IMG/VR virus record: IMGVR_UViG_3300036778_000025
Location: 1-42,271 of that record
DNA length: 42,271 bases
Origin: a virus
Taxonomy: Duplodnaviria > Caudoviricetes
Direction: 5' to 3' (one strand)
This document shows positions 15,557 through 33,628 of this stretch, piece by piece. A model generated the notes under the pieces. The model saw nothing but the letters and a program-made list of their open reading frames with translations, made no database searches and had not been told where the DNA came from. The translations under genes and the position numbers were made by a program. Position 1 is the stretch's first letter; each line of letters opens with the position of its first letter.

Positions 15557-16263
15557 GTGTAGCCGTAGACCTTGATGGTTCCGCTGGCGATATTGCCGCT
15601 GCTCATCAGGAATTGAATGCCGTTGATGGGGGCTTGGACGTCGAGAAAGCCGGCGCAAGTGGCGACGCCCGCAGTATTGGTGCCGGTGACGAAAGTGCCG
15701 ACGCCGCGAAACATCCGGAGGATGGCCGTGGCGGGCTGTCCATAAAACATGACTGTGCCGGAAAATCCCTGCCCGGCGACGGCGCCCAAGGTCGCCGCCT
15801 GCAACAAGTCAACCCCGGTGGTGAGGCCACCGGCGGAATTGAGATAGGCAGTGACCCGATAGGCGCCGCCGACGTGCACCTGCGCCTGGAAGCTCACATT
15901 GGCGGTGACCGGAAGCACGTTCTCGAATACGAACTGATATTCGTTGTAACCGAGCAGGAAGCTTGCGAGGTCCGCCAAGGCCGCGGAATTGTTGGCGGTC
16001 ATGGTGTTGAGCAAAATCCCGGTCTTTGGCACCAGCGCCGACAGCGGGACGTTGACGAAGGTCTGCGCGACCGAGTCCCACACGGTGACATAATCGGTCG
16101 GCTGGGCGGCCGGCGGCGGCGGGTTCTGCACCTGGATGTTGGCGACGCTGTAGCCGACCGTCCAAATGCCGTTTTGCTTGTTGATGGTGATCGGCCCGGA
16201 GCCGGTGACCAGGGCGGGAAACGGAACCGGAACTTGAACCTGTACATTGACCGGAGCGTTCAT
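15553..16263 (-). CDS. Tail fibre/virion protein
   Basis: Ends INGIQFLMSSGNIASGTIKVYGYT, a C-terminus typical of phage tail proteins. Confidence 0.7.
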   Translation of the reverse strand: MNAPVNVQVQVPVPFPALVTGSGPITINKQNGIWTVGYSVANIQVQNPPPPAAQPTDYVTVWDSVAQTFVNVPLSALVPKTGILLNTMTANNSAALADLASFLLGYNEYQFVFENVLPVTANVSFQAQVHVGGAYRVTAYLNSAGGLTTGVDLLQAATLGAVAGQGFSGTVMFYGQPATAILRMFRGVGTFVTGTNTAGVATCAGFLDVQAPINGIQFLMSSGNIASGTIKVYGYT

Positions 16264-16991
16264 ACTGTGACTCCACCGCTCATGACCGGCAATCTGGCCA
16301 TGAACACCTGCCGGGTGTCCTGCGTGTTGGTCATGGTGAGATTGGCGCGAAAGGTGCCGCCCCAGTCGGTCGGCTGATTGGCAACGCCGATATTGCCCAA
16401 GGTTTTGAATTTCGCCTCGGGAACGGAAATCTGGATCATGCCCAGATCGAGAATGTTGATTCCATTGCCGAGCGACGCGGAAATGAGCGGTCCGTAGTCG
16501 GGATAAACGCCGAGATCGTACCAGGGGACATAACCCATCGTCCCTGAGATCGGTGGCGCGATGCGGATTTCGAACTGGAAGCTCCAGCCAATCTGGCACA
16601 CCAGGGCGCCGCTCGCGGCGGTGTAGCCGGTGACAAAGCCGGTCATGCTGTTGACGCCGGACTGGTCGGTAATGGTGATCGGCTGGCCGGCCACAATGGC
16701 CAGATTGGGCGGCACCGTCAGGGCGAGCGCCAGCAATTGGCTACCGATCGGGTAAGCCGGGATGGTCAGGGTCGAGGTTGAGCTCGTCGTCAGCGCACCA
16801 ATCTGCACCGTCCAGTGGCTAGCGGTGAAGTTTTGGCCTCCGGGCAAGGTCACCTGGGCGAGATCAATCGGCTGATAGCGCTGGCCGAACGGCTGCGTGC
16901 CGTCATAGCTGTCGCGGTCGGTCAGCTTCAGCGTCTCGATAAAATCTTCGCGGTTGGTGAATTTGCGGAACAGGATTTGCTCGGCGAACAT
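16260..16991 (-). CDS. Virion/tail-associated beta-rich protein
   Basis: 243 aa, beta-rich, lies between two tail genes. Confidence 0.6.
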   Translation of the reverse strand: MFAEQILFRKFTNREDFIETLKLTDRDSYDGTQPFGQRYQPIDLAQVTLPGGQNFTASHWTVQIGALTTSSTSTLTIPAYPIGSQLLALALTVPPNLAIVAGQPITITDQSGVNSMTGFVTGYTAASGALVCQIGWSFQFEIRIAPPISGTMGYVPWYDLGVYPDYGPLISASLGNGINILDLGMIQISVPEAKFKTLGNIGVANQPTDWGGTFRANLTMTNTQDTRQVFMARLPVMSGGVTV

Positions 16992-16998
16992 GGCGCCC

Positions 16999-18039
16999 TC
17001 ACAATTTCAGGTACCAAGTCCCCAACAGCACGTTGGGGATGGTCGAGAATCCCTGGCCGCCGCCGCTGAGCGTGCCGGACGTGGCTGCGCTGATCGAGCC
17101 GCCGGTGACGGTCACCGGGACAGTTATGCCGCCCGTTTGAGACAGCCCGGCAAAAGGCTGCGTTCCCGCCGCACCCGACCCCGCCGCGCCCCAGGTGCGG
17201 TTGTCGGTGATTGTGGTGGTCAGGCTCAGCGGCGAATTGGGTAAGTTGGCCTGACTGATTATATTATTATTGATGCCGGCGACGCCGTTGGGCGTAGTCG
17301 GGGTATCGCCCGAGCCGGTCATGTTGCCGGCGAGGATGCGCCCGGAGGCGCTCGCGCCCATATCGTCGAGCCCGAACGGCCCGCGCCCGCGCATGTCGGG
17401 CACAGTCATTTGAAAGTGCATACCGTAATCAGTCAAAGCGTTACCGGTACGGGGGGAACTCTGCGGGCAATGCACTTGCGGACAATTCGCATAGAGCCAG
17501 ACATACAGAGCTTGCGTATCGGGGTTAGCCCGCTGGGTCGCGCCTGAATTGGCGTCGCCGATGGTCAACCCGTTGGCTATCACCCAATCCTGCAAAGGGC
17601 CGCCGGCTGGCCGCCATTTGATGTCCCCGGTTGAGAAAATGGCCGATGCCGGCACACCCGGCGCGACGGTGCCGCCGCTGGTGGTGCCGCCGATCACCAG
17701 CATGGCTGGATAATCGAACACCACCACGCCGCCCGACGTGGTCAGGCGCACGTGCACCGATCCGGCCGGCAGGTAGAGCATCGGAATCCGGCCGGTGGTG
17801 TCGGCTTGCAGCGGCCACGGGTTCTGGATGGTGAGCGCCGAGTCCTGGAAGCTGACCAGGGGCGCCGAGACAGTGCCGGCGACGTAGGTGTAGAGCAATG
17901 CGCCGATCAGCGGCCGGCCGTTAACGTCGACCTGTTGCGCCAGGGCAACAGGGATTGTCCCTTGGGCCTGGGCGGCTTGACCACAAAATAGAATGCCCAA
18001 CATAATCAGCAGCGCCGCAAGGGCGCGGCGCGGGTTCAC
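16999..18039 (-). CDS. Tail fibre: signal peptide, P22-tailspike-type particle-binding domain, tail-collar domain
   Basis: (M)NPRRALAALLIMLGILFCGQAAQA|Q; QQVDVNGRPLIGALLYTYVAGT...NPWPLQADTTGR; TGDIK...WVIANGLTIG...VPDMRGRGPFG. Start could be 18039 (GTG) or 18069. Confidence 0.8.
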   Translation of the reverse strand: MNPRRALAALLIMLGILFCGQAAQAQGTIPVALAQQVDVNGRPLIGALLYTYVAGTVSAPLVSFQDSALTIQNPWPLQADTTGRIPMLYLPAGSVHVRLTTSGGVVVFDYPAMLVIGGTTSGGTVAPGVPASAIFSTGDIKWRPAGGPLQDWVIANGLTIGDANSGATQRANPDTQALYVWLYANCPQVHCPQSSPRTGNALTDYGMHFQMTVPDMRGRGPFGLDDMGASASGRILAGNMTGSGDTPTTPNGVAGINNNIISQANLPNSPLSLTTTITDNRTWGAAGSGAAGTQPFAGLSQTGGITVPVTVTGGSISAATSGTLSGGGQGFSTIPNVLLGTWYLKL

Positions 18040-18043
18040 GATT

Positions 18044-18059
18044 CGTTTCACGTGAAACA
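18044..18059. promoter_or_regulatory. parS: Chromosomal-type parS site (ParB binding)
   Basis: CGTTTCACGTGAAACA matches TGTTTCACGTGAAACA at 15/16; an overlapping 13/16 copy lies at 18053-18068. Confidence 0.75.
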
Positions 18060-18088
18060 CGTGAAACATGCGAGCGAGGGTCAAAAGC

Positions 18089-18607
18089 ATGCGCGACATT
18101 GTCGACTTCATTGGAGACTCGATTTTCTGGATCATGTTTTTCTGGCCGGCGATCAGCACGCTGTTAGCCGTGGGCGTCGTCTGGTTCATGATCTGGCTAT
18201 TCTTCTTTCGCGTAGGCCGCCCCGATAGCAGCAGCCGCCTTACGCGCCCCTATGTCCTGAGCCCCGACCCGGGCGACGCCGCCGGTTGCGGCCCGCAGGG
18301 CGTCGAACAACACTGGACTTTTGCGGACTATCGCGATTCCTTTGTCGAGCGCCCCCGGATCAGTCGACGCCAGGAGCTCGCCAACGCGCGCAGCGACGCG
18401 TTCGTCGACCAACTTTACACCGCGATGGGCCGCACCCGCGATCAACGCCCCGGCGATCACGTGCGGAATACTGACGTCATGCTCTTTAAGCCCCTCAAAG
18501 GCGGCAACCCCGCCGCCGGCCAAGCCCATCTCGGCAAGCTGCCGGGCGGTGGTGGAATTACCGAGCGCTTGGCGCGCCTTGTCGACCACCGTCTCGACCC
18601 GAAGTAG
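18089..18607 (+). CDS. Possible antisense membrane protein
   Basis: Very hydrophobic N-terminus IFWIMFFWPAISTLLAVGVVWFMIWLFFF fills the gap between late genes; the remainder is antisense to the ejection gene. Confidence 0.35.
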   Translation: MRDIVDFIGDSIFWIMFFWPAISTLLAVGVVWFMIWLFFFRVGRPDSSSRLTRPYVLSPDPGDAAGCGPQGVEQHWTFADYRDSFVERPRISRRQELANARSDAFVDQLYTAMGRTRDQRPGDHVRNTDVMLFKPLKGGNPAAGQAHLGKLPGGGGITERLARLVDHRLDPK

Positions 18608-20374
18608 CGCCTCCAGTTTGGCGGCGCGCTCGGGACCGAGCGCCAGCGCAATCCGCTTGCGTGCGTCATCGTTATTGAGAAAAACCGAGTTGATGACGTT
18701 CTGGCGATCATTGGTGCGCTCGATCTTGTCGGCCAGATCGGAGGCAAAGCCGCGGGCGAACAGCTCGCGCTCGACCGGCGAGAATTGCTGTAATCCGCGT
18801 ATCGCGTCGGGAATTTTCATGCCCGACATGACGAATTTTTGCCCAGCCTCGAGCGCGTTCTCCGCGCCAAAGAACATCTTTGCGGTGCCGCGCGCCGCGC
18901 CATATTCCGGCACAATGCTGTCGAGCTCGTTTTTGAGTTGGCGCGCGAGATCGTTGTAGAGCCCGGCGCTTTGACTGCCGGGGGGTGCGGCGCGCGCCTT
19001 GTCCTGCAGTTCGCGCGCGGCATAGTCCCAAAGCTGAATATTCGGGTATGCCGGCAGGCCCTTGCCGCCGGTCTTGATCAGGCCGCCGCCCTCGATGCGA
19101 AATGGCGGGTTCATGGCCCCATAGCCGTCGCGCACCGCGTAGTTTTTCCATTTCGAGATCGCCCCGGACAGTGCCCGTTGCACGTAAGGCGCGGCCGTCA
19201 GCCGCTCCAGTTCCGGCGACCAGATTTGCTTATCGCCGGCCGCGTAGGCGCGCTGATAGGCCGGCCGATTGGCCTCGCGCGCGGCGTTCTCGATCGCCAC
19301 CGCGTCGTCAGCGGCATTGCCGCCGCCCGTCATATTGCGAATGAAACCAGCAACCCGCGGCGATTGCTGCGCAAACCGCGCCGATGTCATTTCCTCCAGG
19401 GCCGAACGCGCCTCTGGCGACGTGTTCGCCGCCGACCGCGCCAGCGCCCGGGTGCGCTCGCCGCCGACGTCAACGATCGCCTGCGGGGTTCCCGCCTCCG
19501 CGCCCGCAGCGGACATTTCCGGCGTGAATGGCTGACCTTGGCGCGCAAGATCGCTTTGCAAGGCGCTGGCCACGCGCCGGCTTGCCTCCGTCTCCACATC
19601 GCGGACGCCGCGGGCAATTCCGAGCACTTTCGATCCGAGCCCGCCGAGCCCTTCCAGTGCGCCACCGGCGGCGCCACCGAACAGCGCCCCGGTGCCCGCG
19701 CCTTCAGCCCCCGCCAGCGCCACATCTTGCGGCGATTGCCCTTCACTGACCGCCTGCCCGGCACTCAAAGCCCCACCGCCGACAGCGCCGCGCGAGGCCG
19801 CCTGTGCGAGCCGGCCGGTGACGCTAGCGCCGCCCCCGATGCCGGGTATCGGCAACGCGATCGCCGCGCCAAGCTGGCCGGCCAGAAACGGCAGCGGATG
19901 CTGCTCGCTCGCCAGCCGCTGGTCTTCGGCCGCGGCCTTGCGGCCACGCTCGTAAGCTTCCTTGACGGTCTTGTCGGGATGGCTGGAAAACACATTCCCG
20001 AGCATCTTGGCGGCGCCGACCACGGGCGCAAAATCATGTGCCGCCTGCGATTGGTTCCATTCTGGCCCGGCCGCTGCGGCCAGCCCTTCCGCCGCCGGAC
20101 CGAGGCCAAAGGTCAGCATTTCTGCCGCACCGCGCCCGACCGCCTCGCCGGTGCCGATGTCTCGCGCCGCCGGTTGCTGTTGCGCCTCGGGGTTCCAGTC
20201 GGGCAGTGCCTGGAACGGGTCGCCGGTCGGTGGCGCACCCGGCGCCTGATCCTGCGCCTTTTGCGTCGGCGCCTGCCAATCCGGTAACGCTGCAAACGGA
20301 TCACCGCCCTGGCCACCGCGCAACCGCACCTGAATGTCGACGGGAGCGCGGGCGCCAGGATCGAGAAACGTCAT
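18197..20374 (-). CDS. Large ejection (DNA transfer) protein, P22 gp16 position
   Basis: 725 aa, Gly/Ala-rich helical, DPF.ALPDW repeats; third gene of the ejection trio. Confidence 0.7.
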   Translation of the reverse strand: MTFLDPGARAPVDIQVRLRGGQGGDPFAALPDWQAPTQKAQDQAPGAPPTGDPFQALPDWNPEAQQQPAARDIGTGEAVGRGAAEMLTFGLGPAAEGLAAAAGPEWNQSQAAHDFAPVVGAAKMLGNVFSSHPDKTVKEAYERGRKAAAEDQRLASEQHPLPFLAGQLGAAIALPIPGIGGGASVTGRLAQAASRGAVGGGALSAGQAVSEGQSPQDVALAGAEGAGTGALFGGAAGGALEGLGGLGSKVLGIARGVRDVETEASRRVASALQSDLARQGQPFTPEMSAAGAEAGTPQAIVDVGGERTRALARSAANTSPEARSALEEMTSARFAQQSPRVAGFIRNMTGGGNAADDAVAIENAAREANRPAYQRAYAAGDKQIWSPELERLTAAPYVQRALSGAISKWKNYAVRDGYGAMNPPFRIEGGGLIKTGGKGLPAYPNIQLWDYAARELQDKARAAPPGSQSAGLYNDLARQLKNELDSIVPEYGAARGTAKMFFGAENALEAGQKFVMSGMKIPDAIRGLQQFSPVERELFARGFASDLADKIERTNDRQNVINSVFLNNDDARKRIALALGPERAAKLEALLRVETVVDKARQALGNSTTARQLAEMGLAGGGVAAFEGLKEHDVSIPHVIAGALIAGAAHRGVKLVDERVAARVGELLASTDPGALDKGIAIVRKSPVLFDALRAATGGVARVGAQDIGARKAAAAIGAAYAKEE

Positions 20375-22134: not shown

Positions 22135-22851
22135 TTATCGACCCCCGAACAGGCCGCTGAGCAGATTGCCGCCAAACGTGCCGCCGCTGCCGGCGCCGGC
22201 GCCACCGCTGACTCCAAGCTTGCCGAGCCCGAGCAGTGCGCCGAGCAGGTTGCCCGAGGCGCCGTACTGCGCCAGGTCGGCGTTGGCCTGGGCGTTGCCG
22301 ATGCCCGCCTGCGTGCCATAGGCCGCCGCGCCCTGCGTATTGAGATTCTGGTTGATGCCCTGGCCAAGCCCGGAAAACAGCGTGCCGATGCCGCCGGCAG
22401 CGCTGTTCGCCGCCCCGAGGAACGGCTGCAGATTGGTTAGGAACTGGTTCCAGCCCTGATTGGCCAAGCCGCTCGAGTAATTCGCCACCGCGGCGTCGGT
22501 ATTGCCCGAGCCGAGCATGCCCGACGCCGCCTGATTGCGATCGACGTTCTGGATTCCCTGCTGCAATTGGAACTGATAGCCGGGGTTGTTCTGAAATCCG
22601 GCCGTTGCCGCCGCATTGCCGGCCGCCCCGCCGAGCCCGAGCGCGTTCATCAGTTGCTGAACGCCGCCCTGCGCCTGCTGGTAATTCTGCTGATAGGGCT
22701 GCAGCGCCTGGCCGTAGTTGCTGGCCAGGGTCTGATTGCCGGCGCCGAGCAAGCTGGACAGTTGGCCATAGCCTTGCTGCAGGCCCTGCTGCTGTGCCTG
22801 TGCCGCCTGATCCGCCGGACCGGTGGAGAACACGTCGAACAACCCGGCCAT
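22135..22851 (-). CDS. DNA transfer/pilot protein, P22 gp7-like
   Basis: FQNNPGYQFQLQQG...AASGMLGSGNT; Gly/Gln/Ala-rich. Confidence 0.8.
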   Translation of the reverse strand: MAGLFDVFSTGPADQAAQAQQQGLQQGYGQLSSLLGAGNQTLASNYGQALQPYQQNYQQAQGGVQQLMNALGLGGAAGNAAATAGFQNNPGYQFQLQQGIQNVDRNQAASGMLGSGNTDAAVANYSSGLANQGWNQFLTNLQPFLGAANSAAGGIGTLFSGLGQGINQNLNTQGAAAYGTQAGIGNAQANADLAQYGASGNLLGALLGLGKLGVSGGAGAGSGGTFGGNLLSGLFGGR

Positions 22852-23387
22852 TATGATAACCTCGCAAATGCGCCATGAAGCTCGAGGCGCGCTTTGTTGA
22901 TTGCCTTTGTCGCCGCTTCGATCGTGCTAAATCTGCCAATGCGTCTTTGTCGTTTGCCAATGGCGAGTTGGGCGCTCCATTTTTTTGCTTCGATATCCCA
23001 GCAAACCCCCTTGACGCCGCTCGTATTGTCTCGGCGCAATTTTGAATTATGGATGTTCTGACCGTTGCTTGCTGCGCGCAGATTGCTCCACCGATTATCG
23101 AGACGATTTCCGTTGCGGTGATCAATCTGCTCTGTCGGTTCTTCCCCGGTCATAATTTTCCAAATAATGCGTTGCGCCAGATAGTAAGTCGGCTTTGCAT
23201 TTGTCTTGATTCCAATCGTCAGGTACCCGCGCATAGTGACGGTTCCGGCCGGCTTTGAGCAGATGTTGTATCCGCGCCCGAGCCTTTTGCGCCAAAAGAC
23301 AGCGCCTGTTTCCGGGTTATAATCAAACAGTCTCAGCAATTCTTCCCGATCAGGAAGTGCCTTTATCGGTGCACGTTTTCCCGCCAT
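22851..23387 (-). CDS. Free-standing HNH homing endonuclease with AP2-like C-terminus
   Basis: IDHRNGNRLDNRWSNLR, NTSGVKGV and IGRFST motifs; lower GC. Confidence 0.9.
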   Translation of the reverse strand: MAGKRAPIKALPDREELLRLFDYNPETGAVFWRKRLGRGYNICSKPAGTVTMRGYLTIGIKTNAKPTYYLAQRIIWKIMTGEEPTEQIDHRNGNRLDNRWSNLRAASNGQNIHNSKLRRDNTSGVKGVCWDIEAKKWSAQLAIGKRQRRIGRFSTIEAATKAINKARLELHGAFARLS

Positions 23388-23398
23388 GGCTTATCCGT

Positions 23399-24787
23399 TC
23401 AGGTTGCCGGGTTGAGCAGTTCCATCTGGTTCGCCGAGAGGTGATAGCGCAGAATGAGCTCATGCCCGGCGCCGTGAATGTCGTTGGCGGCCAAGGCTAG
23501 GCCGCCCTTTTTGGTAATGCCGCAATTGATGATGTCGGAACCGCGGTTCTGGATGCGGATGGCCGGCGTAGTGGCGGCATTTGCCCCCGGCGCCCGCACA
23601 AAGAACAGCTTGCCGTCCGGCGCGTTATCGAAGGTCTGCGCGAAGTTGGCGACCAAGGCGTCACCGGTGCCGGTGCCGACCACCCACGGCGGCTGTTGCG
23701 CGCTGTCATTGCTGTCAATCAGGTTATCCAGCGCCGGGGCGACCGCGCCGTTGCCCTCGTACAGCCGCACATAGTTGGCGCGGGCGAAATTGCCGATGGT
23801 GCCCGAGTTCGCGAACTGAGTCGCCCAAAATGCGGTGTCGACGCCGTCGAGGTAGTTCGATTCCGGCCAGTTCAGTAGCACTGAATAATCGAGTTTTACC
23901 GCCGTCGCGCCCGCAACCGTGCCCGTCACGCCGCTGTAGAAATGCACGCCGACGAAATGATTGCTGTCGCAACCCTGCAGATTAAGCCCGGTTTCCGATC
24001 CGCTGTTGCCGGCGATGATCGTCGTATTGAAAAACATGTTGTAGCAGGAATTTGCCGGCTGACCGGAGCCAACCCCGATCCCGATGCCGGTCAGCAACAG
24101 GGCGAGCGCGCCGGAAACCGCCGGATTGAGAATCGTCAGATTGCTAAACGTGTTGTGCATCGAATTGGCGATCGCCGCACCAAAGTTGCCATAGGCGGTG
24201 AGTTCCACGCCGGTCTTGCAGCCGGTAACGGTCAGGAACCGGCACTCGCCGTTCTGCCCGGCGACGACCTTCAGCCCGGTCACGCCGGCCACGCTCTGGC
24301 CATCGAGCAGGATGTTCTCGATGCCCCACCCCACCAATGGGCCGGCGATCTGCACCATGGGCGTGTTGGTCGGGCCGACCCATTTGAACGTGACCGGGGT
24401 TGCGGCGGGTGTCCCCAGGCCGCCGCCGGCGGTCGACGGCACCCCCATGCCGACGATGCGCACGCCCTGGAACGTGCTGACGGCGCTGGACGTGCCGTTG
24501 CCCAGCATGAGCGACGCATCGAGCGCGATGGTAGAGCCGCCGGGGATGGTGATGGTTCCGCCCCCGGCGCTCCCCACTTGGGCGATCGCGGCATTGAAGG
24601 CCGCGGAAGAGGCCGCGCCGCCCGTGAGGTCAACCCCGGAAAAGTCGCTGATGGATACGGTGTCGCTGCCGGCCCCGCTACGCACGAACTTGTCGAGGCT
24701 CTGGAAATACTGCACCCAAGGCAAATTGTGGTTATTGGCCTGCTGGCCAATGACCGGGGCGGTGGGCGGCGGCAGCGGCGCCAGCAT
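23399..24787 (-). CDS. Tailspike/depolymerase with right-handed beta-helix (pectate-lyase-like)
   Basis: DLTGGAASSAAFNAAIA...GGGTITIPGG; Asn/Gly-rich helix rungs; lies directly after the tail hub. Confidence 0.75.
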   Translation of the reverse strand: MLAPLPPPTAPVIGQQANNHNLPWVQYFQSLDKFVRSGAGSDTVSISDFSGVDLTGGAASSAAFNAAIAQVGSAGGGTITIPGGSTIALDASLMLGNGTSSAVSTFQGVRIVGMGVPSTAGGGLGTPAATPVTFKWVGPTNTPMVQIAGPLVGWGIENILLDGQSVAGVTGLKVVAGQNGECRFLTVTGCKTGVELTAYGNFGAAIANSMHNTFSNLTILNPAVSGALALLLTGIGIGVGSGQPANSCYNMFFNTTIIAGNSGSETGLNLQGCDSNHFVGVHFYSGVTGTVAGATAVKLDYSVLLNWPESNYLDGVDTAFWATQFANSGTIGNFARANYVRLYEGNGAVAPALDNLIDSNDSAQQPPWVVGTGTGDALVANFAQTFDNAPDGKLFFVRAPGANAATTPAIRIQNRGSDIINCGITKKGGLALAANDIHGAGHELILRYHLSANQMELLNPAT

Positions 24788-26478
24788 CAGTATTCCCTCG
24801 GATCAGTTGCCTGGGTGGCGCCGAACAGGCCGAACCACACCGGATCGGTACAGTCGACGCGCCAGCGCCGTGCCTGCGGCCCCGAGGTGCCGGTGTTCTT
24901 GACCGACACGCGGGCGAACTTGCTGCGGCGCTGAAACCCTAATGAGCGCACCAGCGGATTGCCCCAGCTATAGCCGTCATCATCCGACCAGGAGATCGCC
25001 ACCGACGGGTTGACCATGTTGGGCGGCGCGGTGATGTCGACGGCCGTTCCGCCGCTGGTCCAGGCGTTGGCGAAATGTGACCCCAGCAATTGGATCAATT
25101 CGCCGTTGATCTGATTGATCGGCCAGGTGCCGTTGGCCTCGGTGGTGCCGCCAACCCCGGACACGATGGCATAGTCGCCGTTGTTGACCTGGGTGGCGTC
25201 GTTGACGATCAGTTGGATTTCGCCATTGCCGGCGGCTTGCGCCCCCAGCACGGTCATCTGCAGCATGCGCGAATTCATCCCGACTCCGACCTCGAAATTG
25301 AAATCGGCGCGCGGGATCGCCAGCCGGTTCGGAAAACCTGCCACCGGCCCCGACTCCATGCGCGCCAGCAGCGGCATGCCGACTTCGGTATAGTTGGTGT
25401 CGTCGACGAACAGCAGCGCGCCCGTGAGGGTGTCGCCGACCAGCCACTTGCCGAATGCGGCATGTGACGACGTCGCCCGCCAACGCACGTTTGAGCCGGC
25501 GAAATTGGAGGTTCGCTCGGTCCATTTCAGGGTGTTGAGATTGACTTCCCAGGACCAGTCAGGCGAGGCGATCGACCAAAATTTCTTGCCCTGCACCACG
25601 TAGCACAGGGCATCCAGGAGCTTGCCGGCGCGCGCCGCCGCCTCGATCTGCCGGTCGAGATCGGGCGGCGATATCTTCACCGGCTGCAACTGATTGGGCG
25701 CCAAGCGCCAGACTCCAAAATCGTGCGACACAAAGCACAGATCGGCAAAGCCGGTTTCCCAGCCGGCGATGGCGGCGGGTTGCAGCAGGCCGTTGTCGAG
25801 CACTGCTAGACGCGAATAAGGGAATCCCGGCGCCGGCTGTGCGGTGTCCGAATAGATTTCACAACTCGCCGTGGTGAACGCCCAGATATATCCCGAATAG
25901 GCGATCACCCGCAGCAAGGTGACGTCGGAGCGCGCCTGACACGTCGTAAAGGTCAGCGCGTTGATGGTCAGCGAGTTGTTGTTGGTGGCAAAAATCCGGC
26001 CATCGGCGATGGAAAAGAACAGATACGAGTCCTGGAACGTCACCGAGTTGGGCTGCGGCAGTATCCCACCGGCGGTGAATGGCACCGCGGTGCCCGAGGT
26101 CAGGTCATAGGCGCCGTTGTCCGGGTCGACCACGATGATGTTGGGCGACGGCTGCAGTTGATTGCGGGCGATCGATATCTTTTTGCTGCCGTTGACGGTG
26201 CCAACATCAGTGGCGACGCCGGCGGCCGTGACCGTTACCGCCGTATCCTTCCAGAAATCATAACTGGTGTTGTTGACGATCAGGCCGCCGCGGTAGCCGC
26301 TCAGGAGGGTGCCGACGAACACGGTCAGCCCTGGTTGCCGCCGCCACACGTGCTTGTCTGCATTGGCGTCGCCCAGCGGCTCGGCCGACACGTTGATCAG
26401 CCGGCCACCGGATTCCTGCGGGTTGGCGCCCGGCGCCGATGACAACGGCCAGGGAATATCCATCGGCTGGCGTGGCAC
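24787..26478 (-). CDS. Tail hub / packaged-DNA stabilisation protein, P22 gp10-like
   Basis: GRLINV.AEP...PGL; ISWSDDDGYSWGNP..RSLG motif. Confidence 0.85.
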   Translation of the reverse strand: MPRQPMDIPWPLSSAPGANPQESGGRLINVSAEPLGDANADKHVWRRQPGLTVFVGTLLSGYRGGLIVNNTSYDFWKDTAVTVTAAGVATDVGTVNGSKKISIARNQLQPSPNIIVVDPDNGAYDLTSGTAVPFTAGGILPQPNSVTFQDSYLFFSIADGRIFATNNNSLTINALTFTTCQARSDVTLLRVIAYSGYIWAFTTASCEIYSDTAQPAPGFPYSRLAVLDNGLLQPAAIAGWETGFADLCFVSHDFGVWRLAPNQLQPVKISPPDLDRQIEAAARAGKLLDALCYVVQGKKFWSIASPDWSWEVNLNTLKWTERTSNFAGSNVRWRATSSHAAFGKWLVGDTLTGALLFVDDTNYTEVGMPLLARMESGPVAGFPNRLAIPRADFNFEVGVGMNSRMLQMTVLGAQAAGNGEIQLIVNDATQVNNGDYAIVSGVGGTTEANGTWPINQINGELIQLLGSHFANAWTSGGTAVDITAPPNMVNPSVAISWSDDDGYSWGNPLVRSLGFQRRSKFARVSVKNTGTSGPQARRWRVDCTDPVWFGLFGATQATDPREY

Positions 26479-26879
26479 TACAGATACTCCACCCGCAATC
26501 GTTCATAGGTCGGGCGCCCGCGCGCCATCTCGCGCAGGGTTTTTGCCGCCGCGCCGGACCCGACGTCGACGCCTTGCACGCCGCCGAGCCCGGAATTTTT
26601 CAGCATCACAAAATCGGCGTCGTTGACGCCGAACTTGAGACAGACCTCGCCGGCGATGATGGAGACGAGCTCGCGATAATATTCCGCCGGCGTCACATCC
26701 GGATCGGGGATGTAGACGATATTCAGCGCGCCGAGCTTGGCCATGACCGAGTCGAGCTCCTCGCTGACATAGGCGAAGTCCTCAGGGTCGGTAGGCTGGC
26801 CGGATTGCTTGACCTTGAGTTCCTTGAGCACGCCTTCGATCAGATCATTAGCGGTGCGGGTCGGCCCGGTCATCGCCAT
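26478..26879 (-). CDS. Head-tail adaptor, P22 gp4-like
   Basis: RTANDLIEGVLKELKVKQSGQPTDPED; position before the hub gene. Confidence 0.7.
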   Translation of the reverse strand: MAMTGPTRTANDLIEGVLKELKVKQSGQPTDPEDFAYVSEELDSVMAKLGALNIVYIPDPDVTPAEYYRELVSIIAGEVCLKFGVNDADFVMLKNSGLGGVQGVDVGSGAAAKTLREMARGRPTYERLRVEYL

Positions 26880-26882
26880 CGG

Positions 26883-27374
26883 CTAGCGTCCGCGCGCTTG
26901 CTGGCGGGCGAGCTTGGCCGCCTGCTTCAATTCATCGGCGCGGATATCGATGAACGGCCGCAACGCGCGCAGGTCCTCGTCGGTCATCATGCATTGCTCG
27001 CGCAGGTCTTCCTCCGCCTCGAAGCGCTGCCGCAATCGAGTCAAATCGGTTTCCGACTTGAGCCAATGCTGCACGTGCAGCCGATACTCTGCGGGCGTGC
27101 ACATTTCGTCCTCAGCGGGCAGTTTGCGCTCCGGCTTGGTTTCGCCCTCGATGCGGAAATTCGGGTTGCTGCGCGCCATTTCGGCGTAGGTGACCTTGCG
27201 CTCGCGTGGCACCCGCACGACCGTTCCGTCCGGGCGTTCCGAGGCGACCGTTTCCATAATCACATAGCCGGCGTCGTCGGGCAGGCTTTCCGGCATGTTG
27301 GCTTTGAAGCGGCGCGCGCCCCAGATAACAAAATTTGGCTCGTCGGGCGGCGGGTCATAGATGATCTTGATCAT
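26883..27374 (-). CDS. Hypothetical head-region protein
   Basis: 163 aa, ATGA coupled. Confidence 0.65.
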   Translation of the reverse strand: MIKIIYDPPPDEPNFVIWGARRFKANMPESLPDDAGYVIMETVASERPDGTVVRVPRERKVTYAEMARSNPNFRIEGETKPERKLPAEDEMCTPAEYRLHVQHWLKSETDLTRLRQRFEAEEDLREQCMMTDEDLRALRPFIDIRADELKQAAKLARQQARGR

Positions 27375-27817
27375 GTGAATATCGATCCTGTCCAGTTGCC
27401 GAGATTGCCGACTCCCGCCGGCGGGCCACCGCCAACCGGCGACGGCAACGCTTCGGCAACGAAAACCCCGAAGTTGCCGGCGGCAAGAACCACGCGGCCG
27501 GTGATCGCACCGAACGCCGCGGGCGATCCGTTCATGCTGTCCGAGTTGCCCACCGCATCGGCATAGGCAAAGACGTTCATTGCGGCGGTGCCGTCATTGA
27601 TGACAACAATGATCGAGCTTGCGTCAAGCGTATCGAGTGACGGCAGCACCGCGTTTGACGATGCGGCACCTTTGGTGAACCGCGCGAGCCGACCGAGAAC
27701 GCGCGGCGAAGCTGCGGTCAGGTTATTGCCGGCGGTGGTTCCTGCGGTCTGATTATCGACCATGGCCAGCCCGAGGCGGGTGAACGCCTGTCGCGCGGCG
27801 TTGGTTGCGTTTGACAT
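27371..27817 (-). CDS. Putative head decoration/fibre protein
   Basis: AAGGAG RBS; AVLPS...IVVINDGTAAMNVFA beta motif. Confidence 0.6.
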   Translation of the reverse strand: MSNATNAARQAFTRLGLAMVDNQTAGTTAGNNLTAASPRVLGRLARFTKGAASSNAVLPSLDTLDASSIIVVINDGTAAMNVFAYADAVGNSDSMNGSPAAFGAITGRVVLAAGNFGVFVAEALPSPVGGGPPAGVGNLGNWTGSIFT

Positions 27818-27841
27818 AGTTGCTCTCCTTTCAACGAATTG

Positions 27842-27863
27842 GGGCCGGCACAAATGCCGGCCC
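27842..27863 (-). terminator. GC hairpin after the capsid and cement genes
   Basis: GGGCCGGCA-CAAA-TGCCGGCCC perfect 9-bp stem; weak U-tract. Confidence 0.5.
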
Positions 27864-27881
27864 GGTTGTTATGGTGCCTGC

Positions 27882-28505
27882 TCAGCAGCCGGGCGGACGT
27901 GCCGGTTGTCCCGGCTGCGGCGTTCCTTGTGCACAGTTGCCGTCGTTGGGCGGGATATATTCGATGATGATCGAAGCCAACCCCGCTGGGGTTGCGTTAG
28001 GAGCGCCGGTGGCAACCCATTTCACCCATAGATCAAAGCCGCCGTTGAAGCCGGACGGCGAGGTTGTCGTCGACGGGGTGTTGCCGATGACGTTGATCGA
28101 TGCCGGCACCACCGTGCCGGTGGCAAGTCCCACCGTCTGCAGGTTCATGGTGGTGGTAACGATTTCATTGGCGCTGGCCTGGGTGATGCCCAAGGTCAAC
28201 GCATCGGAGGTGGTCGAGTTGAACGGAATATAAACCGCCAGATACACGCGCGTCACGATGGCATTGAACGGCAGGCTGGCGGTCGCCAGCTGCACCGTAC
28301 AAGTACCGGCCACGGGGGTGCCGCACATGCCGACGGTCAGCGTGTTGCGGATGTAGTGCGTCATCTGCTCGGTGTATTGCCGCGGCGTTGGCCGCCGCGT
28401 GGTGGTCGAGCCCGCCGGGATCACCTGCGCGAATGCAGGCCACGCCGCCGCCAGCAGCATCAAGCCTGAACCTGATGCGGCAACAAGGTTACGGATGCTA
28501 CGCAT
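27882..28505 (-). CDS. Capsid cement/decoration-like protein with signal peptide
   Basis: AAGGAGG RBS; MRSIRNLVAASGSGLMLLAAAWPAFA|Q; LPFNAIVTRVYLAV..PFNSTTSDALTLG; directly follows the capsid gene. Confidence 0.7.
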   Translation of the reverse strand: MRSIRNLVAASGSGLMLLAAAWPAFAQVIPAGSTTTRRPTPRQYTEQMTHYIRNTLTVGMCGTPVAGTCTVQLATASLPFNAIVTRVYLAVYIPFNSTTSDALTLGITQASANEIVTTTMNLQTVGLATGTVVPASINVIGNTPSTTTSPSGFNGGFDLWVKWVATGAPNATPAGLASIIIEYIPPNDGNCAQGTPQPGQPARPPGC

Positions 28506-28533
28506 GGGGTGGTCCTCCTTTCCTTGTTTGCCG

Positions 28534-29682
28534 TTACTGATCAGACGCCGCGGCGGTGAACAGGGTGAACACGCCCCATTCCTTGTAGTTGCCGAGATTG
28601 TTGGTCTTGGCGATTTTCTTCATGCCGTAGGCCATCTTGATGCCGACGCCGCGATAGAACTGATAGTCGTCTTCGCGTAGGAACGTCGGCATCGGCATGC
28701 GGCCCCAACCCCAGGCAACCGCGCCTTGTCCGCACATGAACGCCGGGGCAACCTGGCCGGTGGCGGCGCCGCCGGTGGTGTAAGTTGTCGGCAAGCGGGT
28801 GGTGAGCGGCGGGATCTCCCGGATGATGACGCCGTCCCAGATCAGATCACCGTCCTGGAAGATCGGGTTTTTGTCGAGCCCGTCGCCTTCGCGCGGACGC
28901 GCCTGGGTGTTGGCCTGGATGATCGCTGGGTCGGCCTTCAGATCGCGAAACTGGAAGGTGTTCGCGAACAGCACGAAATACTCCCGGCCGTCTTTCAGCT
29001 TGTAGGGCCGGATGCGCGGTTGTGCGAGCTTGGCCAGCCGCTTGCCTTTGCTGACCATCGTCGCCGACAAGGTCATGGCCTGGGTGACGTTGCCGAGCGA
29101 CCCGGAAAAGTTGCTGCTCACCAAGTTGCCGACGGCGCCGCCGAACAGCACCCGGTCGGCATTGTCGCCGACCCAGAGGTTACGGGCCGTTGCGCCGGCC
29201 GCATCCAACAAGGCACCGTTGACGCGTTGCCCAGCCGATGAGCCCAACCCTGCTGGCGGGGTGGTGGCGATCGGGATTGCATAGAGCGTATCGGTGAGTT
29301 CATCGATATGCAGTTCCTTACCCCAATCTTCCAGCAGCGGCCGCGCCTGACCGAACAGGTCGATCGAGGATTTCTGTTCTTCCGAGATCGGAATCTTGAT
29401 GGCATTGCGCGCCCAGTCGATCCACATCCGGTCGCCGTAGTTGTCGATCGACTCTTCGTTGCCGACCAGGGCGCCGGTCGAGATCGCGGTGCTTCGCAAC
29501 CGGGCGATCAGCGGAATGTTGATCTGCTCGCCGCCTTTCTTCAAATCCGGGATTACCCGGAAGATCGCGGTCATTTCCTGGCCCACATAGGGCGAGTAGA
29601 GGTTCTGTCTGACGTATTCCCGATATACCTGTTTGGAGAACACGATCAGTTTGTTGTTGGGACTGACGGTCGTAACAGCCAT
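28534..29682 (-). CDS. Major capsid protein (DUF4043/N4-gp56-like)
   Basis: DLKKGGEQINIPLIARL, LVGNEE, AQPRIRP and NPIFQDGDLIWDGVIIRE motifs. Confidence 0.92.
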   Translation of the reverse strand: MAVTTVSPNNKLIVFSKQVYREYVRQNLYSPYVGQEMTAIFRVIPDLKKGGEQINIPLIARLRSTAISTGALVGNEESIDNYGDRMWIDWARNAIKIPISEEQKSSIDLFGQARPLLEDWGKELHIDELTDTLYAIPIATTPPAGLGSSAGQRVNGALLDAAGATARNLWVGDNADRVLFGGAVGNLVSSNFSGSLGNVTQAMTLSATMVSKGKRLAKLAQPRIRPYKLKDGREYFVLFANTFQFRDLKADPAIIQANTQARPREGDGLDKNPIFQDGDLIWDGVIIREIPPLTTRLPTTYTTGGAATGQVAPAFMCGQGAVAWGWGRMPMPTFLREDDYQFYRGVGIKMAYGMKKIAKTNNLGNYKEWGVFTLFTAAASDQ

Positions 29683-29709
29683 GGCTTACGCTCCTGCGAG
29701 CGCGCGCCC

Positions 29710-30717
29710 TCATGAGCGGCGATCGCTGAAAGCGAAATCGTTGTAGGATTGCGGTTTGGAATCGTACATGCCGGGATCATCCGGGACGACTCGTCGGCCG
29801 CCGGCCGAGTTCAACGATTTCGGCAATTGCGTCATCTGGCGCGCTGGCGCCGGACGCGGGGGAACGCCGTTCGACTGAGATTGCCGCCGAGCATCTGGAA
29901 TCTGGTAACCGAACCGATCCGCCTGTGCCACGAACGCGTCGTACTCGCGCTGCTCGCGTTCCTGCTGCAGTTTTTCGATCTGCTCACGGCCGCCGCCCTG
30001 ACGTTCCCACATCTTCACGAGGGAACCGGCCGGATCGGGCGAGTCGCGCAGGTATTCGAACAATTGCTGACGGTTGCGCGGGTCGTGCAGGTTGAGGCTT
30101 TGCATGGCCCAGTTGCCCGCGGCTTGGACTTTCCAGCCCTCGTCGGGGTCGCGTTCGGCATGGTTGAGCATGCGCACGATGCGGTCGTTCTGATCGAACA
30201 GGCGGGCACCGTCGGGGTCGAGAATCGGATCGGGACGCGGCTGCGGTGGTTGCTGTGGCTGTTGCGGCTGCATGCGCCGCATCGCCTCCATCTCGCCGCG
30301 CAAGCGGTTGAGCTCCGCCTCTTGTTCGCGCTGGCGCGTTTCGACTTCACGCCGGCGCGTGGTTTCCTCCTGTAGCCGGGTGAGTGGAATGCGCTGCTCC
30401 GGTGCCGGTGGCGGCATTGGTCCGCCATCGTCGTCTTCCGTCTCGTCCTGTTCCTCGTCGTCCGCTTCGTCCTGTTCCTGCTCGTCGCCGGGATCGGCCG
30501 TCACGTCGTCTTGTGGCAGGCCTTCGATATCTTCCGGTTGTTCGAGTGAACGATCATCATCGTCGCCGGGCTCGATATCGCCATCGAGATCGGGATCGTG
30601 ATTGAACGCGGCGCGCGCCTGCTCGTCGAAGGTCTCCGCCACCATGGCGTTGATCTCATCGTCGAGCGGGCTTTCCATGCGATTCATCTGCTCGGGGGAA
30701 ATCTCAGTCTTAGGCAT
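29710..30717 (-). CDS. Scaffolding protein
   Basis: Acidic N-terminus, RIPLTRLQE coiled coil, PDPILDPDG, LPKSLNS; precedes the capsid gene. Confidence 0.85.
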   Translation of the reverse strand: MPKTEISPEQMNRMESPLDDEINAMVAETFDEQARAAFNHDPDLDGDIEPGDDDDRSLEQPEDIEGLPQDDVTADPGDEQEQDEADDEEQDETEDDDGGPMPPPAPEQRIPLTRLQEETTRRREVETRQREQEAELNRLRGEMEAMRRMQPQQPQQPPQPRPDPILDPDGARLFDQNDRIVRMLNHAERDPDEGWKVQAAGNWAMQSLNLHDPRNRQQLFEYLRDSPDPAGSLVKMWERQGGGREQIEKLQQEREQREYDAFVAQADRFGYQIPDARRQSQSNGVPPRPAPARQMTQLPKSLNSAGGRRVVPDDPGMYDSKPQSYNDFAFSDRRS

Positions 30718-30729
30718 TGCGTGGTCTCT

Positions 30730-30815
30730 CCTGTGACGTCGGACAGTGTACGAATCGACCCTTTGCGCCGGCCGGGGTGCGCGCGCCTGTGACGTCGGTG
30801 CGGTACGGATCGCCC
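30730..30815. repeat. Direct repeat in the scaffold gene leader
   Basis: CCTGTGACGTCGG at 30730 and 30786, each followed by ...GTACG.ATCG.CC. Confidence 0.75.
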
Positions 30816-30861
30816 GTCAGAGTCGGCGGCACTCCCAGCGATGACGCTCGCTGGCGGCGAA

Positions 30862-32232
30862 CTAGTTGATCGACAATCCTTGCAGGATTGAGCGCAGCTC
30901 AGCCCCCATCAGCGGATAGCTGTTGAGGTTCGGGTGCACGCCCTGGCAAGTGTATTTGTACGCGGTGCCGTCGGTCAGCCATTTCCAGCGGGTGCTGGAG
31001 TCCTGCGTCGTTGCCAAGGTTAGCTGGCCGTCGATCGGCGCGGTCTGATACATGGTGTTGATCTGGTCGCCGACCTGCCCGGTATTGAAGCCGTTGCCCG
31101 GCGTTTGGTTGGCGGCCGTTGCCCAGTTGTCGGTGCTCGACGTACGCTGGTTCATCTGCATGACGACGATACGCTCTACGCCAACGGCGCGCGCGTTCTG
31201 CCACATCTGCAGATTATTATTGTAGATCGTCGCGGCGACGCCACCGGGGACGTCGTTGGCGCCCATGTCGTCAAACAGAACATTGGCATACTGCAAATAG
31301 GTTACCGATTTTGTCCAGGTCAGCGCTTCGGCTGCCCCACTGCCGCCCTGAGTGATCTTTGTGTACGGGATGGCCCCCGAGATTGCGCCACCGGCGCCGA
31401 GCGCCGCGTGGGGCATCAAGCCGTAGCCGGTGGCGATCATATTTCCTGAGTCGGCGCAGGCTGCTCCGCCGGAACTGACCTGATAATCATCGTTGCCGAC
31501 CGACCAGGAGGCGCCGATATTGGCGACCGCCAGATGCCCCGCGGTTGCGCAGCGGCCGAGAATGGCGGACGGGCCGTAACCATAATTCTGTGCCAGCGAC
31601 CCGCTCGGCGCGGTCATTGCACCGGTCGCATAGACCTGATCGATGTCATTTGCCGGTGGATACAGATAGCTTGCCGTCCCGGCATAATTGATGCCGGTAT
31701 TGGCGCCTTCCGGCAGGTTTCCCGCCGCTGGGATCGTGCCGGTGATTCTGATCCAGTAAAGCTGGTTTGGCACCAGTGATATCGTCAACGTGTCGCTGTG
31801 CTGATTGGAAGCGCCATCGGCCAGCGTGGTCCCGGCGAGCCCGCCGAACTTGATAGGTGTGAAAGTGGTTGGGCTGGTGTTTTCCAGCGCGACCTTGACG
31901 ATGGTCATGGCTTGTCCGAGGTTGGTTTCCACCACCGGGGTGCCCGCCTGCAGATAGAAGTTGTCAAACGCCAGCGTGAGCTCGGTTGCCGGGCAACCGA
32001 AGATGACCGGTATGCGCGCCACGAATTGCGTTCGTGTGGTCTGCGCGGAGGCTAAAAACGGTATCACACCATTGGTCCCGATGATCCGCACCGGCTGCAA
32101 CCCCGGCTGCGATCCAGAAGTCTTGTAGGATTGCGCATAGGCGGCGAAAGCGAACAGCAAAACGCCGGCTAGGGCACCGAGTTGACCAAAAACTCGATTT
32201 GCGGCGCGCTTGCGTCTGCTACGATCGTCCAT
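30862..32232 (-). CDS. SGNH/GDSL hydrolase with N-terminal beta domain and signal peptide
   Basis: AGGA RBS; ...LGALAGVLLFAFAAYA|Q; blocks IGASWS, QGGSG, MGAND and QGVHPN. Confidence 0.75.
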   Translation of the reverse strand: MDDRSRRKRAANRVFGQLGALAGVLLFAFAAYAQSYKTSGSQPGLQPVRIIGTNGVIPFLASAQTTRTQFVARIPVIFGCPATELTLAFDNFYLQAGTPVVETNLGQAMTIVKVALENTSPTTFTPIKFGGLAGTTLADGASNQHSDTLTISLVPNQLYWIRITGTIPAAGNLPEGANTGINYAGTASYLYPPANDIDQVYATGAMTAPSGSLAQNYGYGPSAILGRCATAGHLAVANIGASWSVGNDDYQVSSGGAACADSGNMIATGYGLMPHAALGAGGAISGAIPYTKITQGGSGAAEALTWTKSVTYLQYANVLFDDMGANDVPGGVAATIYNNNLQMWQNARAVGVERIVVMQMNQRTSSTDNWATAANQTPGNGFNTGQVGDQINTMYQTAPIDGQLTLATTQDSSTRWKWLTDGTAYKYTCQGVHPNLNSYPLMGAELRSILQGLSIN

Positions 32233-33275
32233 GTTGTTCCTACTAAAGTCGCTGGCCAAGTTCCGAAGGTGCTGCTGCCGCCGGTACAAGCCGCCCCGGC
32301 ACAGGAAACCGCGGCGGCCATGTTCACCAATGAATTGCTGGCGCCGGCATTGACCTGCGTTCCGCCGATGTAGCCGACCGCCGCGGTTCCGCCGGAGAGG
32401 CCGTTCACCACCACGGTTGAATTGTCGGCGTTGATGCACCACCACAGATTGGAGGTGCCGTTGGCGCCGTTGACGCCAACTTGCTGATTGGCGCCGAGGG
32501 CAGCGTTGAAGGCGCCGGCGGCCGCCGTGCTGATGCTTGGCGTGGAACTGAGCAGCAGGCCGGGCCGTCCGGTGACGTTGGAATAAAGCGCAAGCTGAAT
32601 GTTGCCGGCGGCGGCCAGGGTGCTGATACGCGTGCCCAGGCTTGAGATTGTCAGCCGCTGGCCGACTTGCCCGAACGTACATTTGATCACGCTGGCGGTC
32701 GCCGCGGCGCCATTGGTAAAACTGCCCGAGTTGAGCGGCTGATACCAGTTGGCGGCGACGTAGCCGGGATGGCTCGGCGCAATCACCGAGCCCGGAACAC
32801 CGAGTAAGACCGTGTAGTTTGTTCCATCAGATACAATCCGCGCGGCTTGCCCCGGCAGCAATTGCCGATAGGCGATCGTATCGATGGTTGAGGTTGCCGG
32901 CGTGATGGTGACAATGCCGCTGCCGCTGTTGCGATAGTCCGCATACCATCCAGCGATGAATTGGCTGGCGGCGCCCGCCTGCGGCAAGGTGACGGCGACG
33001 GCGCCGGCGTTGGTGAAATTGGTTAGCGTTCCGCAATCGGCATTAGCGATCGTGTAAGTCGCGCCGGTCTGCGGATTGATCATCTCGACCGCAGTGATCG
33101 TGCCGGCTGACGTGATTGGGTTGGGCGCAGCGACTGAGGCACAGCCGCCGCCAACTGATGTCACCGTGCCGACGCCGCCGCCACCACCGCCGCCACCACC
33201 ATTGAAGATGCCATCGGCCAGCGCCGGGCCGGTCAGCAGAAGCAGGAGGACGCTGAGTTTATTGCGTATCGACAT
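32169..33275 (-). CDS. Fibre-like virion protein with signal peptide
   Basis: MSIRNKLSVLLLLLTGPALA|DG; GTVTSV...PITSAGTI and QTGATYTI...VTLP...SDGTNY fibre motifs. Confidence 0.7.
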   Translation of the reverse strand: MSIRNKLSVLLLLLTGPALADGIFNGGGGGGGGGVGTVTSVGGGCASVAAPNPITSAGTITAVEMINPQTGATYTIANADCGTLTNFTNAGAVAVTLPQAGAASQFIAGWYADYRNSGSGIVTITPATSTIDTIAYRQLLPGQAARIVSDGTNYTVLLGVPGSVIAPSHPGYVAANWYQPLNSGSFTNGAAATASVIKCTFGQVGQRLTISSLGTRISTLAAAGNIQLALYSNVTGRPGLLLSSTPSISTAAAGAFNAALGANQQVGVNGANGTSNLWWCINADNSTVVVNGLSGGTAAVGYIGGTQVNAGASNSLVNMAAAVSCAGAACTGGSSTFGTWPATLVGTTWTIVADASAPQIEFLVNSVP

Positions 33276-33612
33276 AGACGAAATCCCCGGCAGTGGCACA
33301 GGTCACCGCAACATTGTCGTTGGGAATGTAGGGGTAATAGCGCTGGTAGGACCCGCCCGGTATCAGCAGGATTGCGCGCGCCTTGGTGGCGCTGGCGGTG
33401 GGCCCGAGAAACACCCAGCAGCTATCGGTCGCGTTGTTGTTCTGGATGGTGAGCGAGCGGCGTGAGGTAGCGCCGGCGGTCAAGCCGGGCACACTCTGGA
33501 ATGAGCTGGCGACGGCGATGGTCACCGACAGATTGAGGGTCGGCGCCATTGACTGACCGAACGCCGGAAATGATAAGGCCGCCATCACAGCGGCCAGTGT
33601 CAAGCGTCGCAT
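33259..33612 (-). CDS. Small beta-sandwich virion-type protein with signal peptide
   Basis: MRRLTLAAVMAALSFPAFG|Q; RRSLTIQNN...WVFLG...ILLIPGGSY. Confidence 0.7.
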   Translation of the reverse strand: MRRLTLAAVMAALSFPAFGQSMAPTLNLSVTIAVASSFQSVPGLTAGATSRRSLTIQNNNATDSCWVFLGPTASATKARAILLIPGGSYQRYYPYIPNDNVAVTCATAGDFVYVDTQ

Positions 33613-33628
33613 TGATGTCCCCTATGGC

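Follow-up and report, generated by a model that had tools for sequence, protein, structure and literature searches.

Tailed phages are held to complete their assembly in the cytoplasm, and in P22-like phages tailspikes and decoration proteins can be added to finished heads. The present analysis concerns the tailed-phage record IMGVR_UViG_3300036778_000025 of IMG/VR, the whole 42,271 bases of which are referred to here as the window, and a group of its genes for candidate outer virion parts that start with export-type leaders. Two of these genes, g28505 and g18039, encode proteins that are predicted to share the folds of the cements (decoration proteins) of Pam1 (gp6, 7eel) and GP4 (8h89) and of the tailspikes of Pam1 (gp17, 7eeq), Pan3 (9vyg) and P22 (1lkt), respectively, the similarity to the tailspikes concerning their head-binding domains. 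Passages of PMC9698820 locate the GP4 cement on the outer capsid surface. Pam1 gp6 and gp17 are leaderless (scores of 4.32 and 0.45 with the predictor described below), whereas their counterparts in the window have leaders and extra cysteine pairs. Moreover, g18039 ends in a collar-like domain and not in a long spike.

The nearest precedent for exported outer parts is a GenBank note on gp49 of phage Bcep781 (AF543311.2), which is annotated as 'possible tail fiber; possible signal peptide domain', scores 7.28 and has 14 cysteines. Similarly, BcepC6B gp19 (AY605181.1), encoded after the tail fibre gene, scores 7.83 and has 4 cysteines. In these phages one gene each, among those scored, is known by annotation, whereas the window has several. 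No homology of g18039 to the Bcep781 and BcepC6B proteins was seen, the other five window proteins not being compared directly. Passages of PMC4823517 describe type I signal sequences that direct the virion proteins pVIII and pIII of filamentous phages through SecYEG. According to the same passages, these proteins stay membrane-anchored and assemble during extrusion, whereas the mature proteins of the window look soluble, and the window phage has a P22-like portal, a terminase and an endolysin, unlike filamentous phages. A further system is the head spike of the gene transfer agent RcGTA, in which, as passages of PMC7296036 describe, the fibre Rcc01080 hooks with its residues 2-10 (Ile/Leu-Gly repeats) into a base formed by an Rcc01079 pentamer and has a flexible capsule-binding part after the hook. 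Finally, a 2026 preprint (10.64898/2026.10.24.761521) deals with phage-encoded envelope proteins and their display on the host surface. In a literature search, with subscription journals and supplements outside its coverage, no paper was found in which a tailed phage exports structural proteins. The parts described below belong to known families, and it is the export route that was not found described for tailed phages.

Leader-bearing genes in the window and in related loci

Leaders were called with a purpose-written heuristic for n-, h- and c-regions, not with SignalP, and the cut-off was set at a score of at least 5.5. In a calibration on Rhizobium pRL12, this value was reached by 9 of 11 periplasmic binding proteins but by 1 of 80 cytoplasmic proteins. 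The earlier note had read export leaders on six proteins (Table 1), and the N-termini read as it had quoted them. Five score between 6.15 and 8.15 (g33612, 6.15; g33275, 7.65; g32232, 7.3; g28505, 6.32; g18039, 8.15), whereas g2673 stays below the cut-off with 5.22. None of the other 33 window genes that were scored reaches 5.5, the maximum being 5.37 for the membrane protein g38914, and the portal, scaffold, capsid, hub, ejection and beta-helix proteins are leaderless by their scores, as had been claimed. According to the heuristic, the five genes and their families have the features of Sec-dependent substrates of signal peptidase I, i.e. a basic n-region, an uncharged h-region and small residues at -3 and -1. 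Tat routing was rejected because the strict twin-arginine motif occurs in 0/71, 0/113 and 0/37 members of three sets, and lipoprotein routing because a lipobox was found in 0, 2 and 0 members of the same sets.

The observation of leaders is largely confirmed, and it recurs among relatives. A first set of loci was fetched with capsid and tail queries, alternative starts being allowed for every gene alike; this set and a second one include near-duplicates. In the first set, leaders were called in none of the capsid (0/78), scaffold (0/66), portal (0/53), hub (0/48), ejection (0/39) and TerL (0/20) proteins and in 1 of 54 adaptors, as opposed to 22 of 48 cements and 10 of 12 tail proteins. The second set yielded leader-bearing forms for 1/70 hub, 0/60 adaptor and 0/74 ejection proteins on the one hand, and for 23/26 cements, 54/76 tail proteins and 19/19 members of the g33612 family on the other. 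The leaders have the same character and divergent sequences across family members. The heuristic nature of the predictor, the ambiguous start of g18039 and the low score of g2673 would all be compatible with N-termini that are hydrophobic by chance or with miscalled starts. However, leaders of unrelated sequence recur in 80 tail, 34 cement and 115 g33612-family proteins and the call rate in core families is near zero, and we regard this explanation as exceedingly improbable.

A cement fold, which the earlier note had proposed to look for among the six proteins, was recovered for g28505, as the top two Foldseek matches of the structure model (pLDDT 70) are the GP4 and Pam1 cements. A cement profile search, run without Pam1 in the alignment, matched KHP30 gp15 (E 1.5e-5), GP4 (0.0014) and Pam1 (0.0053), and the gene lies directly 3' of the capsid gene, as for cements of this type. 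Sequence and model thus point to g28505 as a Pam1/GP4/KHP30-type cement, which presumably binds the capsid surface; by direct comparison, no match was found among annotated phages. The cysteine pairs 61/69 and 191/207 of g28505 are located in a loop insertion and in a C-terminal extension, respectively, and both regions are missing from the leaderless orthologues. Where capsids are at least 69% identical, all 22 complete post-capsid genes, including that of the window, have divergent leaders and 4-6 cysteines, whereas at 55% capsid identity or less the post-capsid genes never reach the leader cut-off. On the capsid tree, leader-bearing and leaderless cements at the same locus are separated by a single branch split (22 vs 45). 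A wider set of 146 representatives, for which 4 of 150 matches were left out because they exceed 240 amino acids, contains 108 leaderless proteins and 27 that form the leader-bearing clade with 4 or 6 cysteines; two were unclear, and two of the 36 flagged by the heuristic were false positives.

For g18039 a head-binding fold was found over about 80 residues, with an rmsd of 1.1-1.3 A to Pan3 and Pam1 and a match to P22 1lkt. Profile matches (E 2.6e-11 and 4e-10) assign this domain to the first ~90 mature residues, and a collar-like region with a CxxxxC pair follows. A P22-type tailspike was rejected as an identification, because the beta-helix receptor-binding body is missing and the collar-like region stands in its place; rather, sequence and model indicate that g18039 may work like a tailspike anchor. 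No clear ribosome-binding site precedes position 18039, and the short leader was accepted because most homologues have leaders of ~17-27 residues. Among the best 120 of 186 homologues, from which 6 with unclear starts were dropped, 80 are leader-bearing and 34 are leaderless and start at the mature N-terminus. The predicted cleavage site has Ala at -1 in 72 and Ala or Val at -3 in 70 of the 80 leader-bearing forms, and it aligns with the initiator Met of the 34 leaderless ones. The number of mature cysteines is even in 78/80 leader-bearing but 10/34 leaderless proteins. C166 is common to both forms (77/80 vs 32/34), whereas its partner C161 is confined to the leader-bearing ones (75/80 vs 0/34), and three further pairs occur in matched numbers (23/23, 11/11 and 5/5).

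These data bear on the idea that export is leaky, or that the leader tethers the protein to the membrane for a time, and that a cytoplasmic or membrane pool feeds particles assembling or maturing at the inner membrane. No new assembly step would be necessary, some cement leaders are long (30-35 amino acids), and a start with an RBS-like site lies near the cleavage site in 5/54 tail genes. However, the conserved -3 and -1 residues are in register with the leaderless Met and the even cysteine counts indicate an oxidising compartment. In addition, a second start is missing from most loci, with an ATG close to the cleavage site in 7/54 tail, 1/25 cement and 1/20 g33612-family genes. We consider leaky export or tethering improbable.

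The leader-bearing cement and tail genes occupy the loci of leaderless orthologues, and no other cement or head-binding gene was found in the window. In the head-binding domain, leader-bearing and leaderless forms have the same majority residue at 74 of 92 positions. These findings also address the possibility that the proteins are exported but no longer belong to the virion, i.e. that former structural genes now provide decoys in the periplasm or on the cell surface, block superinfection or bring about lysogenic conversion, some of these roles having already been named as an alternative in the earlier note. The phage is temperate, as judged from its integrase, the cargo varies and resembles adhesins or esterases, and residence of the proteins in the particle is predicted only. 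Against this stand the loci just described, the conservation of the docking domain, which is near the leaderless level (0.76 vs 0.80), and the lack of a promoter excess in positions 27000-36000 (2 found vs 2.3 expected, a weak test). Moreover, Bcep781, which we take to be a virulent phage, carries a leader-bearing fibre. A purely non-virion function appears unlikely.

Several relatives show further arrangements around the tail gene. Seven phages with a leaderless tail anchor (L128, L142, L144, L146, L164, L165 and L167; L numbers denote related loci) have large leader-bearing, cysteine-rich genes 2-3 genes downstream. One locus encodes a leader-bearing 887-residue protein with a head-binding-like N-domain directly after its g33612-family gene (L112:10302-12965). 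The tail anchors of L170, L173, L178, L179 and L188 are leader-bearing, as is the cement of L170, and these could be cultured systems; their record identifiers look like those of genomes rather than metagenomes.

The portal-scaffold slot and the accessory proteins

Between portal and scaffold the window encodes g33612, a candidate head-spike base, and the fibre-like g33275. For the g33612 family 242 members were found, and it occurs alongside different capsid families; among the best 120, 115 are leader-bearing and all 120 have both cysteines of the pair C65 and C105. The mature chain of g33275 opens with D-G-I followed by poly-Gly, and viral fibre-type models are similar to its N-terminal part, with TM values of 0.60-0.69. 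The gene after the g33612-family member is leader-bearing in 21/21 loci, and in 18/21 its mature start is D/E-G-I, after which there is usually a Gly-rich linker with unrelated cargo. Elsewhere this motif is found in 1/58 other leader-bearing genes of the same loci and in 0/221 and 0/115 leader-bearing genes of other sets. Without near-duplicates, it is present in 16/19 loci, in 15 of them directly after a signal-peptidase-type site.

It is likely that D/E-G-I is a docking hook. Since an initiator Met in front of Asp or Gln is not removed by methionine aminopeptidase, a D-G-I hook would need signal peptidase. By analogy with RcGTA, g33612 may be the base of a head spike and capture the D-G-I terminus of g33275 exposed by cleavage, and the two proteins would share the base-plus-hooked-fibre layout. 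An export signal is unmentioned in the RcGTA passages of PMC7296036, whereas g33612 and g33275 are leader-bearing. A layout of this kind, i.e. a short-hook fibre with variable cargo and a small base gene nearby, was found in 18/21 loci. A complex prediction with four copies of g33612 and residues 21-54 of g33275 scored 0.02 and speaks neither for nor against the hook. By sequence, g33612 has no match among solved structures, no detectable homology to the RcGTA base and no match among annotated phages; an Atlas lead to the N-domain of the PRD1 P5 spike (0.83) is below the bar of that resource. Most phages whose cement is leader-bearing have between one and five leader-bearing genes in this slot, whereas in those with a leaderless cement it is frequently empty or filled mostly with leaderless genes, as in L042-L044, where leaderless homologues of the g33275 C-domain are found. 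In seven loci (L104, L105, L109, L114, L116, L120 and L121), leader-bearing, Gly-rich proteins of 55-83 amino acids with one C-terminal cysteine pair each adjoin the g33612-family genes.

The remaining two proteins are less well anchored in known structures. g32232 has 4 cysteines, as do 4/4 homologues, of which 3 have a leader. g2673, which has a full length of 994 amino acids and contains cadherin repeats (PF00028, 46.5 bits vs a cut-off of 28.8), is the weakest of the six because of its score of 5.22, its 7 cysteines and the lack of a homologue: for its C-terminal half none was found in viral contigs, metagenome contigs, plasmids or the PDB. Its leader contains an RR pair. The corresponding slot of the closest relative (L101:1-1622) encodes an unrelated protein that looks beta-propeller-like by eye and starts beyond the contig end. 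The fates of the exported proteins might be split, in that cement and tail anchor dock at lysis while g32232, g2673 and perhaps g33275 are released as free matrix- or capsule-modifying enzymes or lectins. The lack of a recognised docking domain in g32232 and g2673 and the unrelated protein in the g2673 slot would fit this. However, the leaderless homologues of the g33275 C-domain in the portal-scaffold slot of L042-L044 fit particle proteins, two g32232 homologues start with D-G after the leader, and we regard such a split as quite unlikely. The designation of all six as virion-type proteins holds by fold for g28505 and g18039, is suggested indirectly for g33612 and g33275 and is conjectural for g32232 and g2673.

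A possible two-compartment assembly

As leaders and extra paired cysteines are found on outer and not on core proteins, the outer parts likely mature in the periplasm. We consider it probable, though well short of certain, that they are exported by Sec and added to the particle at lysis. According to this model, DNA-filled core particles would be built in the cytoplasm, while the cement, the tail anchor and no fewer than three accessory proteins would be directed by their leaders via Sec to the periplasm. There, the leaders would be cleaved, disulfides would form and the mature proteins would wait. Access of the leaderless amidase endolysin to the wall would depend on a holin lesion, and the same lesion would let the particles into the periplasm, where the mature outer proteins would dock and the g33612 base would capture its fibre.

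The mature cysteine counts of 2, 6, 4, 4 and 2 for the first five proteins are as the earlier note had given them, and with one protein per family the ratio of even to odd counts is 70:19 with and 49:82 without a leader. The expectation that leaders and cysteine pairs are gained together is borne out by the parity in the tail family, but not by leader-bearing cements with 0-2 cysteines. Disulfides as the reason for export are not supported, and as the sole reason they are ruled out by these cements; since seven such proteins exist, leader and disulfides are separable, and export probably arose first, with disulfides accumulating later. Gln at +1, seen in five of the six leaders in the earlier note, is common among the leader-bearing tail proteins (59/80) and in the g33612 family (112/120). 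It is not fixed, as Ala, Leu and Asp are also found at this position and many cements have Leu, which rules out an invariant Gln. N-terminal pyroglutamate on the mature proteins is possible from these residues. Passages of PMC5837995 describe the Q-rule for Bacteroidetes and some other phyla, and proteobacteria are not mentioned in its main text.

Several points weigh against the proposed export and docking. The leader predictor is a heuristic and all support is computational. The start of g18039 is ambiguous, because the frame is open to an ATG at 18189, 50 codons upstream, from which the score is 1.82. g2673 combines a borderline score with an odd cysteine count, and g32232 has no solved-structure match. 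The tail tree has only 3 joint changes of leader and C161, corresponding to 2-3 independent pairs, which is not significant; three leader-bearing tail proteins have no cysteine at all. The cysteine-rich leader-bearing cement is a single clade with one change on the capsid tree, and the wider cement set contains the seven further leader-bearing proteins with 0-2 cysteines. Moreover, the two genes after the tail protein remain leaderless, or nearly always so, in the relatives (leaders in 0/48 and 0/24; 6/64 for family f28). Cement and tail leaders are uncoupled in 7/24 loci (both in 16, cement only in 5, tail only in 2, neither in 1), so that strict coupling is ruled out. Finally, parts of PMC12609058 describe putative virion disulfides in Bas63, a phage without reported export, and cite a title reporting virion disulfides of phage Milano; a word search of PMC10811340, on Milano, found no passage on the compartment. 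As virion disulfides are reported for these phages, those of Bas63 as putative ones, disulfides alone do not require export.

Phage type, neighbouring genes and significance

The ends of the window overlap by 144 nt with 1 mismatch, which gives a circle of 42,127 bases, and the phage is a temperate podophage of the Pam1/P22-like type, nearly complete at 42.1 kb. Domain and family searches (matches to PF16510, PF13252, phrog_578 and phrog_598) found genes for a P22-like portal, an HK97-type capsid (PF13252), terminase, hub, ejection proteins, amidase endolysin and integrase, and no tape measure in this podophage gene set. The gene order is the same as in the cyanophage Pam1, which also provides the closest annotated-phage match of the capsid (33% identity). 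The coordinates are collected in Table 1.

Table 1 Positions of the leader-bearing genes and of neighbouring features in the window
Feature	Position	Strand	Remarks
g2673, 5' part of cadherin-repeat protein	1..2673	-	borderline leader 1-24 (2602-2673)
g2673, 3' part	41816..42127	-	reached across 144-nt end overlap
MT-A70 family methyltransferase	8193..9284	+	
Amidase endolysin	14253..15335	-	leaderless
Two genes following the tail protein in most relatives	15553..16991	-	leaderless; families f37/f32 and f28
g18039, tailspike-position protein	16999..18039	-	leader 1-25 (17965-18039), head-binding domain, collar-like domain
HNH-AP2 endonuclease	22851..23387	-	inserted in tail module
Beta-helix-like protein after hub	23399..24787	-	leaderless; 5 Cys
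Adaptor and tail hub	24787..26879	-	leaderless; presumed docking site of head-binding domain
g28505, putative capsid cement (decoration) protein, 207 aa	27882..28505	-	leader 1-26 (28428-28505)
Major capsid protein	28534..29682	-	leaderless; presumed docking site of cement
Probable scaffold	29710..30717	-	identity by position; leaderless
g32232, SGNH-esterase-like protein, 456 aa	30862..32232	-	phrog_8480 E 7e-29; leader 1-33 (32134-32232)
g33275, fibre-like protein, 368 aa	32169..33275	-	leader 1-20 (33216-33275), 6 Cys
g33612, candidate head-spike base, 117 aa	33259..33612	-	leader 1-19 (33556-33612), mature 98 aa
P22-like portal	33629..35830	-	leaderless
g38914, two-helix membrane protein	38684..38914	-	weak match to Thivi_2564 family, below its cut-off
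531-aa protein	39893..41488	-	leaderless; two N-terminal repeats, 7 Cys

The two genes that follow the tail gene are probable cytoplasmic tail partners. The beta-helix-like protein after the hub has leader-bearing homologues in L153:12401-13672 (12 Cys) and L158:12395-13660 (10 Cys); since it is leaderless in the window, the same domain appears to switch compartment. Small membrane proteins that look similar to g38914 follow the tail module in four relatives (L128, L155, L161 and L190), which makes g38914 a holin candidate, and no spanin was recognised in the window. The 531-residue protein is 83% identical in L101 and has no match in the domain and family searches.

The host is probably an alphaproteobacterium, because a syntenic prophage remnant resides in Rhizobium tumorigenes and the integrase has matches in Azospirillum. 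This remnant (L100:5068-23737), located on a plasmid, has the same gene order and a leaderless cement and tail anchor. Two pSymB stretches without annotation were left aside. Lysin matches were uninformative on the host, and no tRNA was found in the window. Among 401 genomes of the class of G001 there were 9 matches, all of them partial-domain, and no full-length tail orthologue. The tested stretch is present in soil metagenomes, one run possibly being the record's own source, and no RNA data sets holding it are listed. That a widespread group of soil tailed phages assembles in two compartments, with a cytoplasmic core and a periplasm-oxidised cement, tail anchor and plug-in head spike as modules that switch independently, with the spike base accepting any cargo whose D-G-I hook signal peptidase has exposed, and with virions completed only in the course of lysis or later, is a broader proposal that we put forward tentatively, at slightly less than an even chance.

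If the export route is real, lysis would be the last step of assembly, and the Sec machinery, the signal peptidase and the disulfide enzymes of the host would be morphogenesis factors. This would account for the use of disulfide-rich receptor-binding proteins by phages and for the label 'secreted hypothetical' on such genes. The cleavage-exposed hook would then be a simple display handle. Swap experiments can draw directly on the natural pairs of leader-bearing and leaderless orthologues.

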